Shown: one piece after another, positions 6,877 to 37,454 of the stretch
Numbering within the stretch: position 1 is the first letter of the stretch
How the letters are laid out: each line of letters begins with the position of its first letter
Virus record (IMG/VR): IMGVR_UViG_3300037155_000078
Location: 1-51,707 of that record
DNA from: a virus
Lineage: Duplodnaviria; Caudoviricetes
DNA: 51,707 bases
Strand: one strand, 5' to 3'
Translations under genes and position numbers: made by a program
Notes under the pieces: generated by a model
Databases searched by the model: none
The model's input: the letters and a program-made list of their open reading frames with translations, nothing else
What the model was told of the DNA's origin: nothing

Positions 6877-7557
6877 TTACTCACTTACCTTTCGTTGCCG
6901 GGCATACTCTTGGTTTGACACCCTCGCATCGTCTTCATCTTTGTGGACGGCGCGGAGAAGAGCATCTGAGTACAACAATCTTGGGCCCCCGCGCTTTCCG
7001 GTCGTAGGGATTTCGTCTGGCTTAGGAAGCGGAACGTATTGCGTTGGGCCACCATATCCTCGAATCCAGACGCTCCACGCAACCTCCATTGTTAGAGCGC
7101 CGCCCTTCGACCCAAAGAGGAAGTCTGGTCGCCAAGTTAGCGGCATAATAGCACTAGGCGGATGTTCGTGAAACAATTTATAGCGACGAGCCGCGTGCCA
7201 ATACTGACTCTTCAGGAGAAGCGCAACTCCGATGCGCGGATTCCACGCAAGGGCAGATTTAATGAACGCTTCTGACTGTGAAAACGGCGGGTTTGTAATA
7301 ATCCAATCAATCCCGGCGTAAGGCGTCCTTTTTGTGAAATCGAACCCGTCCGGGTAAAGATCACCAAAAGTCAGAATAGCGCCAAGTTCCTGCAAGGCAT
7401 GCACCATGTGCCCTTTCCCCGCCGCGGGTTCATAGACTCGCTTCCCCGCAAGGTTGAGAACATAAGCCAGCGCGATTGTGGCTTCGCGCGGCGTAGCGTA
7501 AAAGTCGGTTCCGTTCCGATCTGCCGCAGAAGCATTGGTAAGCGTTCGGCCATTCAT
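6877..7557 (-). CDS. DNA adenine methyltransferase-like protein
   Basis: DFYATP, YEPAAGKG (SAM binding), ITNPPF (catalytic), WRPDF. Confidence 0.88.
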   Translation of the reverse strand: MNGRTLTNASAADRNGTDFYATPREATIALAYVLNLAGKRVYEPAAGKGHMVHALQELGAILTFGDLYPDGFDFTKRTPYAGIDWIITNPPFSQSEAFIKSALAWNPRIGVALLLKSQYWHAARRYKLFHEHPPSAIMPLTWRPDFLFGSKGGALTMEVAWSVWIRGYGGPTQYVPLPKPDEIPTTGKRGGPRLLYSDALLRAVHKDEDDARVSNQEYARQRKVSE

Positions 7558-14814: not shown

Positions 14815-14984
14815 CCAAACGCCAGGCAAACGCAATCGCCGCCCAACTACGACGCGCCGGCCTCTCTCCTCGAGATGGCCGAAGGCGATCCTACCCCCAC
14901 AGTTATCCTCGCTGCCGCCGTGCTGGCAAGCGAAGCGACGGCGAAGATCGTGTCTGACCTCTACGCGAAACCCGACGCGAAGGC

Positions 14985-16359
14985 GTGAGATTCGGCAGCG
15001 TCTGCTCAGGGATCGAGGGTGCATCGGTCGCGTGGGAATCGCTCGGTTGGAAACCGGCGTTCGTCGCGGAGATCGATCCCTTCGCGAACGCAGTACTCGC
15101 CCATCACTATCCCGACGTCCCAAACGTCGGAGACTTCACAAAGATCGGAACGAACGATGTCGGATCAGTTGACCTTCTTATCGGCGGAACGCCCTGCCAA
15201 GATTTCTCCGTGGCGGGACTTCGCGCGGGCCTTGCTGGCGATCGCGGTGCGCTCACCGTTGAATTTGTGCACCTCGCTGAACGCCTTCGCCCCCGCTGGC
15301 TGGTATGGGAGAACGTCCCCGGTGTCTTGTCGGCTGACGGGGGGGGGGGCATTTGGAATCTTCCTCGGGGCGCTGGGGAAACTCGGGTATGGGTTCGCTT
15401 ACCGAATTCTTGACGCTCAGCACTTCGGAGTTCCACAGCGACGCCGTCGCGTGTTCGTTGTCGGATATCTTGGAGATTGGCGACCTGCCGCAGCGGTACT
15501 ATTTGAGCGCGAAAGCCTGCGTCGGGATTCTGCGCCGCGCAGAGAAACGCGGGAGATCGTTACCGCCCTTACTGCAAACGGCCTTGGAGGGGGCGGCCCG
15601 GACGACAACCTAGCGCAAGGCGGCCAACTGTTGGTCGCCTACGAGGTCGCCCATTCGCTGCGCGCCGATGGGTTCGATGCGAGCGAGGATGGCACCGGAC
15701 GCGGAACGCCGCTTGTCGCGACAGTTCTCGGCGACGTTTCGCATACGCTCACGGCGTACAAGGGGCGCGGGCCAGTTCAAGAGGACGGCACCGGGCGAGG
15801 TGCGCCAATCGTCGCGTTCTCATGCAAGGATCACGGCGCAGACGCGGGTGACCTCGCACCCACGTTGCGAGCGATGGAGTTCGATGGTTCTCACGCGAAC
15901 GCTGGCGGTCAGTTAGCAATCGCGTACGGAATCTCAAGCGATGCGATCGACCGATCCGGCGAGGGCGCGGATGGCACGGCTGCGGTTCGAGCTGGCCTTG
16001 GCATCGTCGAGGACGCATCTCCAACCCTTCGCGCAGGGCATGCGAACGCGGTAGCATTCAATCTTCGTGGCAGAGAAAACGGCGCACAACCTGAGATCGA
16101 CGGCGATGGCCTGGCCGCCATACGCGCCGCATCTGGAGGCTCGTCACGATCCTACGTCGCGACGAGCGCCGTTCGCCGGCTCACTCCCGTCGAGTGTGAA
16201 AAACTCCAGGGATTTCCGCCCAACTATACGCTCGTCCCGTACCGCAAGAAGCCCGCTGCCGACGGCCCGCGCTACCGAGCTTTGGGAAACTCGTTCGCCG
16301 TGCCCGTCGTCCGCTGGATTGGCGAACGGATCGCCGCGATCGAAACCCTGCTCGACTAG
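14985..16359 (+). CDS. C5-cytosine DNA methyltransferase, alpha frame, frameshifted at a G11 tract
   Basis: SVCSGIEG, GGTPCQDFS and WENVPG in 14985..15413; DAQHFGVPQRRRRVF, RRLTPVECEKLQGFP and ALGNS in the next frame; removing one G gives 457 aa. Confidence 0.9.
15157..15613 (+). CDS. Overlapping beta-type methyltransferase peptide in an alternative frame, broken by the same tract
   Basis: MSDQLTFLS.. joins ..SLSDILEIGDLPQRYYLSAKACVGILRRAEKRG when the tract is G10 (151 aa). Confidence 0.7.
15339..15349 (+). repeat. Poly-G homopolymer (G11)
   Basis: gac-GGGGGGGGGGG-cattt. Confidence 0.95.
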
Positions 16360-16672: not shown

Positions 16673-17010
16673 ATGAAGACGACCCCGCCGCTGTCCACTC
16701 CGGTTTGCGACGAAGCGCGTACCCTACCGACGTTCAAGCAACGGCTGAAGCATTACCGGACCTGCAGCGATCCACGATGCAAGGCGCGCAGCGCAGCAGC
16801 GTCCGAAGTAGGGCGCATGATAGCGCGCGACAATCGGGCACTGCGATGAAGGCGACCTGCCAGCGATCGCGCATCGGCCCGAAGCGTTGCCGGCGCAAGG
16901 CGTCGGTCACGCGCCAAACGTCGGGCGGATTACGGATCGCGCTCTGCGAGGCATGCGACAAGAAGCACGGCTGGATAGTTGGAAGGAACGACCAAAGTGG
17001 CGGACACTAA
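16673..17010 (+). CDS. Two small Cys-containing proteins (16673..16849 and 16846..17010)
   Basis: ATGA-coupled pair directly after the promoter. Confidence 0.55.
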
Positions 17011-17833
17011 AAAGCGGCCAGCATATCAAGCGCTCCTCTCATTAGATGAGAACAATACCGTCAAGAATCAGTTCGGCTGGCTTCCCGTAAGCGTCTATAA
17101 GCCTGGGCACGCTGCGGCGTGGAAAGACATTATCGGCGACGAAGGAGACCAAACCACACGACGCAGCGCCGAGTCGAAATATCTGCCTGGGCTACGGTTC
17201 AGCCAATTCCACCCTGACTTAGCCGAAATCGTGGTTCGCTATTGGAGCCTCCCCGGGGACCTCGTTTGTGACCCATTCGCTGGCCGAGCGACGCGAGGCA
17301 TCGTGGCGTTGACATTGGAGCGGAGATACCTAGGCTTTGAGGTCGCTCCGTCAACCTTCTCTCAAACGGCAGCCAAGATCGAGGCGCTTGGCGGCAGGCT
17401 CGTCAATGCCGATGGTTGCCGAATGGCGGATGCATTGGATTGCAGTGCCGACTTGGTTTTTTCGTGCCCGCCGTATTTCAATATCGAAAAATATGAAAGC
17501 GCGCCAGGGCAATTATCCGACCTGCCCACTTACGAGGCGTTTGTCGCTCGAATGGGAGTAGCCGCGCAGAATGCCGCGCGCGTTCTAAAGCCTGGGAAGT
17601 TTCTGTGTTGGGTTGTTGGGGATTTTCGCACGGGTGGAAGCCTGCGCGTATTTCATGCTGATACGATCCGCATGTTCGAGGCCGCTGGTTTGAACACGCA
17701 CGACATCGTAATCATCCACAATAATAGCCCCTTCGCGCCCTTGCAGGCCGGGAAGGTTGCGGCGAAGCGGTACACGGCCAAAGTTCACGAGTACCTTTTG
17801 GTATTTCGTAAACCGGAATCAAAAGCGTCATGA
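16997..17833 (+). CDS. N6/N4 DNA methyltransferase
   Basis: DPFAGRATRG, FSCPPYF, HEYLLVFRKP; GTG 16997 with GGAAGG RBS. Confidence 0.9.
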   Translation: MADTKKRPAYQALLSLDENNTVKNQFGWLPVSVYKPGHAAAWKDIIGDEGDQTTRRSAESKYLPGLRFSQFHPDLAEIVVRYWSLPGDLVCDPFAGRATRGIVALTLERRYLGFEVAPSTFSQTAAKIEALGGRLVNADGCRMADALDCSADLVFSCPPYFNIEKYESAPGQLSDLPTYEAFVARMGVAAQNAARVLKPGKFLCWVVGDFRTGGSLRVFHADTIRMFEAAGLNTHDIVIIHNNSPFAPLQAGKVAAKRYTAKVHEYLLVFRKPESKAS

Positions 17834-19811: not shown

Positions 19812-20137
19812 GCCGGCCGCCCGACGCTGTCAAAGAAAAGCTGCGCGGATTCTTCCCGAGCAACGGTACCGAAGGCGACATGTTTCGAGAGCAATTCTGC
19901 GAACGCTGCATCTATTGGAACCAAACCAAAGACGAAGCCAGCGGCGAGGACGTCGGATGCCCGATTTGGGATTCAGCGTTATGGTTCGGATCGCATGACA
20001 ACCCGCCGAGCCAATGGGTCGAGGACAAGAGCGGACTCTCCGGGAGCTGCGCAATGTTTCAGGAGGCGAGCAAGAGTTACGCGGTCCGCGCGGAACGCGA
20101 GCGGCTCGCGTACGAACGAGTAATGCGCGGCGAATGA
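19808..20137 (+). CDS. Cys-rich phage hypothetical protein
   Basis: SNGTEGDMF...CERC...GCPI. Confidence 0.7.
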   Translation: MSRPPDAVKEKLRGFFPSNGTEGDMFREQFCERCIYWNQTKDEASGEDVGCPIWDSALWFGSHDNPPSQWVEDKSGLSGSCAMFQEASKSYAVRAERERLAYERVMRGE

Positions 20138-21066
20138 GCGACCCCGAATACGTCGGCCGCTGCTTCGCGAAGTCCTGCGAGAGCATGGACGAGATCCCCG
20201 ATGGCGCGATCCAAACCTGCGTGACCTCGCCGCCGTATTTCGGCCTGCGCGACTACGGCGTTGAAGGGCAGATTGGACTTGAGGCGAGCGTGGGCGAGTA
20301 CGTCGAGCGCCTGGTGGGCGTGTTCCGCGAGGTGCGGCGGGTTCTCCGGGACGACGGGACCCTCTGGCTTAACCTGGGGGATTCCTACGCCTCGGCGTTT
20401 TCCTGCGCTCGAAGAAACGTCGTCGGTAACGGCAGCCCTGCGCCCGAGGTAGAGCGCCCCAACAGGCTTGAAGGCGGCAGGCTAAAAGAAAAGGACCTCA
20501 TCGGAGTTCCGTGGTCGGTTGCGTTCGCGCTCAGGGCGGACGGATGGTGGCTGCGCGACGCGATCGTGTGGCACAAGCCGAACCCGATGCCGTCTAGCGT
20601 CGAGGACCGATGCACTGCGTCTTACGAGTTTGTTTTCATGCTGGCTAAGTCGGCGCGGTATTTTTCCGATATGGACGCGGTTCGTGAGGACCCGAAGCCC
20701 TGGAACGAAGGACGCATGAGCGCGCCTGCCCTAAGCGGCTCGGCTCGGGAAACAAACTCGGATGGCTATAAACAGCGCACGGTCCAATACGAGGAAGTCA
20801 AGGGGGCCAACCGCCGCAACGTCTGGACGATAGGCTCAGAGCCATACGCCGACGCGCACTTCGCGACGTTCCCGATAGAGTTGCCCTCGCGCTGCATCCG
20901 CATCGGCTCGCGCCCAGGCGACGTTGTGCTCGACCCGTTCGCGGGCTCAGGCACCACCTTCCAGGCCGCCGAGGCGATCGGCCGGCGTTGGACCGGCTAC
21001 GAGCTGAACCCCGAATATCACGCGCTCATCGCCGAACGCACGCGCCAGGCCGGGCTGTTTTCGTGA
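20134..21066 (+). CDS. N4/N6 DNA methyltransferase (beta class)
   Basis: TSPPYFGLRDYG, WHKPNPMP, HFATFP, LDPFAGSGTT. Confidence 0.93.
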   Translation: MSDPEYVGRCFAKSCESMDEIPDGAIQTCVTSPPYFGLRDYGVEGQIGLEASVGEYVERLVGVFREVRRVLRDDGTLWLNLGDSYASAFSCARRNVVGNGSPAPEVERPNRLEGGRLKEKDLIGVPWSVAFALRADGWWLRDAIVWHKPNPMPSSVEDRCTASYEFVFMLAKSARYFSDMDAVREDPKPWNEGRMSAPALSGSARETNSDGYKQRTVQYEEVKGANRRNVWTIGSEPYADAHFATFPIELPSRCIRIGSRPGDVVLDPFAGSGTTFQAAEAIGRRWTGYELNPEYHALIAERTRQAGLFS

Positions 21067-29526: not shown

Positions 29527-30651
29527 TCAAGAAACCACGACCGTCGACGTGAACTGAAACGGGAACGCAAGAAGCCCTTGCGCCATCGCCTGCTCAAAGA
29601 ACTGCGATGACGTCCCGCCTGGGATTTTAATGATGAAGTTTCCCACCTTATTGCTGGTATTCGCGCTCGGGAGCGGCGCTCCCACGACCAGCCCAGAAAT
29701 CGGTTCCGTCCAGTTCGTTCCGATCGGAATCGGGAATGCGTTCTGCCGGGTCGGCGGCGAGCCTCCGAACTTGTTGGTCCCATTGAGGGAGAAGCCATTG
29801 ACGGGCATGGAATTGAGCCCGGCGGTGAATTTTGCGGGGTTCGTCGAGAGAACGCTGGCGTAGATATCGTAGTCGTCGGCGCCGCTCATCGGGGGCGGCG
29901 TACCGACCACAAGCAGGTAATCGAGGGGAACCGTCAGCGTCGACGGCGGCCCGACCAGCGTCTCGCCAAGCGGGGTGACGTAGGAAAGCCAGACGCCATA
30001 TTGTTTCGATGTAAGCGTTCCCCCACTTCGCGAAGAAAGCGTCGGCGCCGGGGGCGAGGGTAATAACGCCGGCTGGATCTGCACGCTCTGCGCTTGCGAA
30101 AGCGTTACGTCTGTCCCACCGACGCCGTAGAGAAAACGCGCGACTTTTAATCTCAGCAACTCGACGTTAAAATACCGCCCGTTGCCGGCGTACAGCCACC
30201 AGGTGAGAACGCGCTTGTAGTAATCGTCGGTCGCGATCGTCGCCGTGCCGCTTTGGAAGTATTCTCGTCCGTTGACCGCACCGACGTTGAGCGGCAAAGA
30301 ATTCAGTCCGGCGACGTATTTGATCGACAGCGATGAGAAGACGGGCCGTTCGAGTCCGTAGATCCCGGTGGCAATCCAGTCCAAGAGCGGACCTGAGACA
30401 TTCGGGTTCGTGTAGACGGCGAGCGGCGTTGAGTTAAACCAGTCCAGGTACGCCTGCGCGAGTTCGTTGAAAGCCGTGAAGAATGCGACGATATTTTCGT
30501 CGTCGCTGTATTCTTGATAGGGATACGACGGGATGATGGTTTGAAGCGGCAGCGGACCAGTGTACGGGACGGGGGTATACCCCTCGATGAGAATCTTCTC
30601 ACCGGACTCTGTTGTGAGCGGCTGCCCGCCTTCAGTTAGAAGCCAACTCAC
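29527..30651 (-). CDS. Baseplate wedge protein (DUF2612 / gpI-like)
   Basis: PSYPYQEYSDD, LLDWIA.GIYG..RP, DDYYKRVLTW; follows baseplate J. Confidence 0.8.
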   Translation of the reverse strand: MSWLLTEGGQPLTTESGEKILIEGYTPVPYTGPLPLQTIIPSYPYQEYSDDENIVAFFTAFNELAQAYLDWFNSTPLAVYTNPNVSGPLLDWIATGIYGLERPVFSSLSIKYVAGLNSLPLNVGAVNGREYFQSGTATIATDDYYKRVLTWWLYAGNGRYFNVELLRLKVARFLYGVGGTDVTLSQAQSVQIQPALLPSPPAPTLSSRSGGTLTSKQYGVWLSYVTPLGETLVGPPSTLTVPLDYLLVVGTPPPMSGADDYDIYASVLSTNPAKFTAGLNSMPVNGFSLNGTNKFGGSPPTRQNAFPIPIGTNWTEPISGLVVGAPLPSANTSNKVGNFIIKIPGGTSSQFFEQAMAQGLLAFPFQFTSTVVVS

Positions 30652-36675: not shown

Positions 36676-37439
36676 TTACCCTCCGAGTGCTTTCGTGAGC
36701 CTATTCAACGCACGCACGATGTGGCGCTGCCGGTATTCGCTCGGAGTCGTGAATTCGTCGAGCCCGTACCGATTCAGCGTTTCGGCGAAACCCTCGCCGG
36801 ATGCCCAATCTAGGACGGAACTGACGATGGTTCCGGCGGTGCGGAAGTCTCGGTTTTCGTCGACTGCACCAAGGAATCTGCGAATTCCGTAGGCGCTAAG
36901 GATGTAATCGAGCCCTTCAAGACTGACGCGAGGGCGCTGTTCTTCATGCCCCGCTTTTCGCGGCGAGCCATCCACGATCCGCAGGTAAAAAAAACGATGG
37001 ACGACTCCGCCTCCTTCCAGTCCTCGGCGTCGATGACGTTACGCGAGAGCGCGATGTCGACGGGGACGGTATCATAGCCCTGCGCTGATGGGGCGAGGAT
37101 CATCGTAAGCCGTTTGATCTCTAAGAGAACGGGCGTCGCCGGATCGCCTGCGATCTCGACCCCATTTTCGATTGCGTCCGCTCGTGCGGCGTCGCGCAAT
37201 GCGAGCGTACCGATGATCGGGCCTGACTCGGCTGCGAAGCCGATACCCTTTGAAAAGAGCGTCATATTGGCGGCGGCGATCGCGCGGTAGTTCGCTTCGA
37301 ATACCTCGCGGCCGAGCGGGGTGTGATACGCCCAAATGAGCGGCTGCAAGACAGCATCATCGCTGCCGTTCTTCGAGACGCTTGTCCAGCGAATCGGAAA
37401 CACCAGCTTCAGATCGGCGGAGATCCTGTTGAGTTCCAT
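36676..37439 (-). CDS. Tail assembly chaperone pair (36810..37439 plus -1 frameshift product to 36676)
   Basis: Between tube and tape measure; T8 run at 36987-36994 joins ORF 36676..36975 in the -1 frame. Confidence 0.75.
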
Positions 37440-37454
37440 GCGCTATACGGTCCT

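Follow-up and report, generated by a model that had tools for sequence, protein, structure and literature searches.

In this study, we analyzed a run of 11 guanines (G11) that interrupts a C5 cytosine DNA methyltransferase gene, hereafter alpha, in the virus record IMGVR_UViG_3300037155_000078 (Duplodnaviria; Caudoviricetes). The window, that is, the whole stretch of DNA analyzed, is the complete contig of 51,707 bases; it contains terminase, portal, sheath, baseplate and tape-measure genes and therefore belongs to an uncultured tailed phage. Its large terminase showed at most 30% identity to that of any isolate, and DNA of the window turned up in peat and permafrost metagenomes of many studies. 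The G tract lies where alpha overlaps a second gene, hereafter beta, which is nested in another frame. The parts of the two genes on either side of the tract are designated alpha-N, alpha-C, beta-N and beta-C (Table 1).

Table 1. Features of the methyltransferase locus and further DNA methyltransferase genes of the window (ORF, open reading frame; aa, amino acids; X2, X3 and X4 are metagenome runs other than the possible source)
Feature	Positions	Strand	Description	Basis
alpha-N	14985..15338	+	C5 methyltransferase motifs I to VI (CSGIEG, PCQDFS, ENVPG), frame 1, GTG start	PF00145
Truncated ORF as assembled	14985..15413	+	142 aa: alpha-N plus 24 out-of-frame residues, stop 15411-15413	
Second assembled ORF	15019-16359		446 aa	
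G11 homopolymer tract	15339..15349	+	11 guanines	Window sequence; contigs with G11 in X2 and X3, G10 in X4
alpha-C	15349..16359	+	Motifs VII and VIII (QRRRRVF), target-recognition region, motifs IX (RRLTPVECEKLQGFP) and X (GNSFAVPVV), frame 2	
beta-N	15157..15348	+	First 64 codons of the nested +1-frame gene, from the conserved ATG, frame 2	Homolog ATG conservation
betaN-alphaC hybrid ORF as assembled	15157-16359	+	400 aa	
beta-C	15350..15613	+	Last 87 codons and stop, frame 3, contains CSLSDILEIGDLPQRYYLSAKACVGILRRAEKRGRSLPPLLQTALE	tblastn on homolog loci
Segment with beta-frame selection	15466..15585	+		Codon-position entropy
Further DNA methyltransferase gene	6877-7557	-		
Further DNA methyltransferase gene	16979-17833	+	Permuted motif order, DPFAG ahead of SCPPY	
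Further DNA methyltransferase gene	20014-21066	+		

The interrupted methyltransferase gene and its G tract

Analysis of the two halves of alpha agreed with the original prediction of a phage-borne C5 methyltransferase, at the level of predicted activity. First, both halves matched PF00145 well above its gathering cut-off of 22 bits (95.5 bits for alpha-N, over profile positions 1-119, and 76.8 bits for alpha-C). Second, alpha-N could be aligned to residues 12-126 of M.HhaI (E 1.9e-11), a region that takes in motif I, GGTPCQDFS and ENVPG, and alpha-C to residues 138-174 (QxRxR) and 245-319 (motifs IX and X) of the same enzyme. Across both halves the C5 methyltransferase motif set is complete, comprising motifs I, IV (the Cys of PCQ), VI (ENV), VIII (QxRxR), IX and X. 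The uninterrupted alpha frame is absent from the sequence as assembled, where G11 breaks it, and is present only for a tract of G10. The break falls within the short segment that links motif VI to motif VII, exactly between the two halves aligned to M.HhaI, and the 457-aa alpha obtained with G10 aligned without gaps to homologs (window ENVPGVLSADGGGAFGIFLG, homolog L142 ENVPGVLSADGGRAFGIFLG). Other decay in the gene, which the original prediction had named as a sign against a switch, was not seen: neither the alpha nor the beta frame contains a second lesion across 1.4 kb, a check of low power, since the samples differ from one another at only 0 or 1 positions per 1.4 kb. Immediately upstream, a 37-codon ORF (14875-14988) overlaps the GTG start of the methyltransferase gene through GTGA, and this overlap suggests possible translational coupling.

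The tract itself was found where the original prediction had placed it, five codons downstream of ENVPG. At a length of 10, it encodes Gly-Gly-Gly in the alpha frame and in the beta frame alike. It is the only G run of more than 6 nucleotides (nt) in the contig, which contains 76 runs of G4, 17 of G5 and one of G6, and the sole other homopolymer of at least 8 is an A8 at 36987-36994. Three overlapping matches to a pattern of nine guanines were detected in the window, every one inside the tract, compared with a mean of 0.41 matches in 100 dinucleotide-preserving shuffles, 3 of which reached three matches. Such shuffles are a loose null model, under which a chance origin of the tract is not negligible, and the real run-length distribution of the contig drops much faster than theirs. 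With regard to codon usage, GGG accounted for 23.6% of the 487 Gly codons in 16 ORFs of the window, and the spelling GGG-GGG for one of the 44 Gly-Gly pairs in the same ORFs.

A second gene nested in the methyltransferase gene

Beta is about 150 aa long and is read one base out of step with alpha; it starts shortly ahead of motif IV and ends some 55 codons beyond motif VIII. We first favored the view that it was a spurious ORF of high-GC DNA, on the grounds that no Pfam family (PF00145 included) matched it and that synonymous shuffles of the window gene on its own gave no significant result (16% of them matched the longest open stretch and 5.7% the stretch through the tract). This view was rejected after analysis of a homolog set of 243 loci, 240 of which came from scans of three collections and 3 from annotated phage records. 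First, the 87-residue peptide encoded at 15350-15610 had a tblastn match in 239 of the 243 loci, always in the +1 frame relative to alpha, with a mean identity of 64.8% compared with 63.7% for the alpha peptide of the same DNA. Second, in 208 distinct genes the +1 frame was open for a median of 171 codons versus approximately 94 in synonymous shuffles; 91 of these genes fell below the 5% level and 178 below the 20% level. Third, codon-position entropy in 176 sequences revealed that alpha position 3 was the most variable position at 14985-15465 and again after 15586, and that at 15466-15585 the most variable position was alpha position 1, which is beta position 3 (the same pattern was obtained with 216 sequences). 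The entropy of alpha position 3 in this segment was 0.45-0.73 bits in the first three 30-nt blocks and 1.22 bits in the fourth, compared with 1.2-1.7 bits elsewhere.

The ends of beta were conserved as well. A beta-frame ATG was present 8 to 16 codons before PCQ in 123 of 195 genes, versus 17 genes for the other shifted frame and 2 for the alpha frame, and in 173 of the same genes the beta stop lay between 135 and 199 codons downstream of PCQ, with 21 genes having it within 50 codons. A Shine-Dalgarno-like word preceded the beta ATG in 60 of 86 distinct homolog contexts versus 77 of 430 control windows. The frame has also been called thousands of times by gene callers: 330 database proteins of 47-153 aa, 872 longer ones and 5,781 representative clusters (E up to 0.001) matched beta, and its typical products are 148-157 aa long with the N-terminus M.QLTF.SEEPPA. 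In the window, the conserved C-terminal peptide SLSDILE...GILRRAEKRG..LP is present in beta-C, and the ORF is whole (151 aa) only for G10. From its presence in the homolog loci, its conserved start and stop and its own selection signature, we conclude that beta is a real conserved gene, in agreement with the original prediction, which had treated the overlapping chain as a coding frame.

No methyltransferase motif was found in beta. The two PHROGs matches were weak (phrog_16143 and phrog_1008, both labelled methyltransferase) and are probably frame-mixed annotations. No sequence relative was found in the PDB at E up to 10, Foldseek gave no match with E <= 0.001 for the beta model, and the best VIA Z was 4.3 over 43 residues (rmsd 2.4), which is no clear fold match. 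The monomer model was weak, with an overall predicted local distance difference test (pLDDT) score of 63, and was confident only at residues ~100-150; the last ~50 residues were modelled as three helices (pLDDT 81-93). We then modelled the complex for the intact alpha-beta pair of homolog L164, using self-built alignments of 73 rows per chain. The ipSAE of the pair was 0.85 versus 0.00 for the best control. Of 80 solved complexes 58 attained the mark, compared with 2 of 110 mismatched pairs; at least 54% of contacts agreed between runs, and the pLDDT of the partner was at least 73. The modelled interface involves motifs IV, VI to VIII and IX and the C-terminal helix of alpha, and the tract-encoded residues lie within it for both chains (alpha 118-120, beta 62-66). 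In a model of L164 alpha, the stretch that shares its DNA with beta goes from ordered to low confidence, with 10-residue pLDDT means of 95 (161-170), 69 (171-180), 53 (181-190) and 41 (191-200). As a prediction, the complex model supports binding of beta to alpha.

The database protein P0219 (250 aa, from a metagenome contig of 1,324 nt) follows beta as far as ...LALREAL, where it passes without a change of frame into methyltransferase motifs IX and X, and could be either a frameshift error or a natural form that joins beta to the closing half of the enzyme. The homologous methyltransferase ORF at L240:797-3184 contains a large insertion after motif VIII that holds an HNH-endonuclease-like ORF (1297-2067) in another frame and may be a mobile intervening element; in this locus, the overlap between a beta-like ORF (2070-2366) and the LFPFSESLSG segment of alpha is retained.

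Tract length as a possible switch

When the products of tracts from G9 to G13 were rebuilt by script, they matched exactly the three states of the original prediction. With G10 or G13, the alpha start yields an alpha of 457 or 458 aa, and the ATG at 15157 yields a beta of 151 or 152 aa. With G11, the same starts give the 142-aa product of alpha-N and a 400-aa betaN-alphaC hybrid, and with G9 or G12 they give an alphaN-betaC hybrid of 208 or 209 aa and a truncated beta of 84 or 85 aa. As at a contingency locus, therefore, one-base changes of a homopolymer within a coding sequence alter the product.

To compare tract lengths, we used contigs of four metagenome runs besides the possible source; those of one run (X5) had no coverage of the tract. 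In X2, a contig at depth 50.9 spans the tract with 0 gaps and has G11. In X3, a contig of 5,858 nt at depth 18.3 also has G11, and its 4 gaps are all located at 16928-16953. In X4, a contig of 448 nt at depth 3.9 has one base missing at 15339 and 0 other differences, giving G10. Since G11 recurs in two independent runs, an error in a single assembly is an unlikely source of it, and an intact G10 allele seems to exist in nature. The original prediction had considered a sequencing error or a recent inactivating slip to be as possible as a switch; the former lost ground with these contigs, and the latter is kept as a rival below. A search with the exact flanks and a variable gap retrieved 0 stretches from viral or metagenome contigs, collections that may leave out the window's own or near records.

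No close relatives were found in viral, genome or metagenome contigs. For the C part, the best full-length identity was 48% in viral contigs (50% over a partial match, L080), 53% in genome contigs (up to 64% for the best segment) and 53% in metagenome contigs (57% for the best segment). The tract site could be located in 221 of the 243 homolog loci, a count in which between-collection duplicates are kept. In the 33 nt after ENVPG, 211 of these loci had a longest G run of 1 to 3 and 9 loci one of 4 to 5; the remaining locus, L036, has an in-frame G9 (L036:2886-2894) at the same site as the window tract. Across the family as a whole, we identified 9 runs of at least G8 in 309,279 nt of methyltransferase coding sequence, compared with 11 runs of G or C of this size in the flanks, which comprise 962,859 nt (Poisson p 0.01). 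All nine were on the coding strand; apart from that of L036, they belong to the target-recognition region and begin at +114 to +162 codons relative to ENV. One of the latter, an out-of-frame G9 at L112:2368-2376 in a contig of a Beijerinckiaceae metagenome-assembled genome, is directly followed by the stop of alpha, with motifs IX and X in the next frame. Judged by this arrangement, L112 provides a second example from nature in which a gene of this methyltransferase family is broken by a G tract. In-frame runs of G8 to G10 were also observed in the target-recognition region of L079, L111, L126, L137, L167, L171 and L208, and most of these coincide with a recurring Gly-Gly-Gly site. Relatives from many phyla (L001-L243) very often spell the Gly-Gly after ENVPG as GGAGGA, which interrupts a potential G run and also resembles a ribosome-binding word.

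It is well established that runs of 10 or 11 guanines undergo slipped-strand mispairing during replication at high and reversible rates. Together, our observations make it somewhat probable that the tract is a real, heritable and slippage-prone G run in a dual-coding part of the methyltransferase gene, which acts like a contingency locus. According to this model, slipped-strand mispairing during phage DNA replication would shift the run by one base, and the tract length modulo 3 would select the product set. G10 (also G7 and G13) would give intact alpha and intact beta, and the progeny would be methylated. G11 would give an alpha-N fragment and the betaN-alphaC hybrid, with no or very little methyltransferase activity because the fragment has motifs I to VI only and lacks motifs VII to X. 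G9 or G12 would give the alphaN-betaC hybrid and a truncated beta. Because runs of this length slip often, a population would hold all three classes, whatever the consensus. As the original prediction proposed, the on state would probably guard against methylation-blocked restriction and the off state evade methylation-dependent defence. For this phage, the high reversible slippage rate, the loss of methylation with G11 and any benefit are what we infer.

Several points weigh against the contingency-locus reading. First, the original prediction had suggested looking for a pure G run in close homologs and had listed interrupted runs among the findings against a switch; in 220 of the 221 homologs the run is indeed interrupted, typically as GGAGGACGGG (Gly-Gly-Arg). 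For this reason the tract is derived and rare at this site and is not a conserved feature of the family. Starting from the usual GGAGGACGGG, the window run requires three substitutions, two from A to G that leave the alpha protein unaltered and one from C to G that replaces Arg by Gly, and the enzyme may already have been impaired by them; Gly at that Arg position was found in two intact homologs, L036 and L106. Second, the broken state was found in three of four assemblies, the window included, which is also compatible with a fixed loss. The G10 allele comes from a single contig at a depth of 3.9, and a single-contig difference under depth 5 may be an error; the length polymorphism, which depends on this contig, is the weakest link of the switch reading. 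Moreover, all lengths are contig consensus values, in which rare variants and within-sample mixtures are invisible. Third, the window beta ATG has no clear ribosome-binding site upstream. Finally, both chains of the modelled complex derive from the same DNA, so that their alignments covary by construction, to which the controls are blind. Among the best 25 residue pairs, 3 share codons, and the overlap does not include the contacts made by motif IX and the C-terminus; thus, the complex is not simply an artefact of shared DNA.

Among the alternatives, a one-way inactivating slip survives best, and we regard it as rather unlikely. It supposes that a G10 arose by chance in the Gly-Gly-Arg stretch and slipped to G11, that the dead allele of a dispensable enzyme spread, and that the length variation is neutral decay. 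The prevalence of G11 (the window and two other runs versus one low-depth G10), the three other DNA methyltransferase genes of the phage, the absence of the tract from the site in nearly all homologs and the replacement of the conserved Arg would all fit such a history. However, neither frame has gained a second lesion in 1.4 kb, and a G10 allele persists in nature (X4). In addition, G tracts are commoner in this family than in its flanks, with another (L112) also out of frame, and slippage at runs of 10 or 11 guanines is inherently reversible, which argues against a one-way loss.

A recoding mechanism, in which G11 is the working state and slippage of RNA polymerase or a ribosomal +1 shift yields some full-length alpha (and beta), seems improbable. 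Most of the known sites of efficient transcriptional slippage consist of A or T runs, and homologs encode alpha in a single frame without a slippery run at this position; G11 is, on the other hand, the majority state (three assemblies), and the same genome has a probable -1 frameshift site, the T8 of the tail chaperone gene. Long homopolymers have been described as sites of transcriptional slippage, for example in Thermus dnaX and Shigella spa13 (PMC5009743).

It is similarly doubtful that the tract is a three-position selector on a two-protein methyltransferase, with a different working product set for each length class. In such a selector, G10 would give the alpha-beta complex, the G11 products (alpha-N and betaN-alphaC) might come together again as a split enzyme whose activity or specificity is changed, and the alphaN-betaC product of G9 or G12, which retains the helical domain of beta, could function as a regulator or a decoy. 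A single phage burst would in that case hold three epigenetic types. The alphaN-betaC architecture does occur among database proteins (P0192, P0237, P0146 and P0002), which may just as well be frameshift errors. Finally, homopolymers are error-prone and only consensus sequences were at hand, yet a miscalled G11 with a true length of G10 everywhere is highly improbable, given G11 in gap-free contig alignment across the tract in two runs from other studies (depths 50.9 and 18.3) and the absence of any other frameshifted gene among the scanned window ORFs.

Related systems and other features of the phage

Homopolymer switches in bacterial methyltransferases are textbook knowledge. In phasevarions, such as that of ModM in Moraxella, simple-sequence repeats in the methyltransferase ORF cause random on/off switching (PMC6902483); these are chromosomal Type III adenine methyltransferases that regulate genes, whereas the enzyme studied here is an orphan C5 methyltransferase of a phage. 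The closest precedent is agt of coliphage T2, also a phage DNA-modification gene with a homopolymer, in which one-base slips of an A run in a glucosyltransferase gene inactivate and restore the gene, with reversion measured at ~1000-fold above that of a point mutant (bioRxiv 10.1101/2025.10.21.683753). According to the same report, it was shown experimentally that the off state evades the modification-dependent TgvAB system and the on state evades McrA/BC. In contrast with agt, the present case involves a G11 tract in a C5 methyltransferase gene, affects two overlapping genes at once and is known from sequence alone. The discussion of that report also mentions polyG tracts in receptor-binding genes of Campylobacter Fletchervirus and in the methylase gene of Bordetella phage BPP-1, in which we located a coding-strand G8 (bpm, 29922-29929 of AY029185). 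These cases resemble ours in having G runs of 7 to 11 bases in phage coding sequences; however, the Fletchervirus tracts concern receptor-binding proteins and not a methyltransferase, and bpm encodes an adenine methyltransferase of another family, with the run in frame and without a nested gene.

A nested methyltransferase chain has been described in M.EcoHK31I, a C5 methyltransferase whose gene wholly contains the coding sequence of a second polypeptide in a different frame. Its two chains associate, beta supplying the motif IX that alpha lacks (PMC2836561). The window beta is likewise encoded in another frame within the alpha gene, but here motifs I to X are all present in alpha, and beta shows neither a methyltransferase motif nor a Pfam match. 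Because alpha carries motif IX, the pair is not a member of the M.EcoHK31I type. Within a limited coverage of the literature, with supplements outside it, we found no published homopolymer switch in a phage C5 methyltransferase and no paper on the nested gene.

The unusual feature of the locus is that a single tract governs two overlapping, probably interacting proteins. Homopolymer contingency loci as a general form of bet-hedging in phages were proposed only in 2025, from laboratory coliphages (bioRxiv 10.1101/2025.10.21.683753). If the contingency-locus reading is true, the tract would be a natural example from soil, in an uncultured phage whose on and off alleles were captured in different environmental samples, and it would act on DNA modification, a property that tips the balance between host defences blocked by modification and those dependent on it. 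The tract also provides a natural knock-out and knock-in of a widespread, unstudied gene nested in phage cytosine methyltransferases, and its G10 and G11 alleles could show if alpha depends on beta and how each state affects the phage methylome.

With alpha, the phage has four modification genes altogether. The three further methyltransferase genes (Table 1) comprise two of the N6_N4 type and one weak match to the N6 type. The gene at 16979-17833 was suspected to be truncated, and this was rejected, as DPFAG and SCPPY both lie within one ORF.

The only other long homopolymer of the contig was found in a gene that sits between the tail tube and the tape measure. On the minus strand, the A8 at 36987-36994 is a T8 that reads GTT TTT TTT ACC. 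Two ORFs occur in this region (36810-37442 and 36676-37038, both on the minus strand), and the -1 frame is open from the T8 to the start of the tape-measure gene. The T8 resembles the T TTT TTT slippery sequence at which frameshifting in tail-assembly chaperone genes usually takes place.

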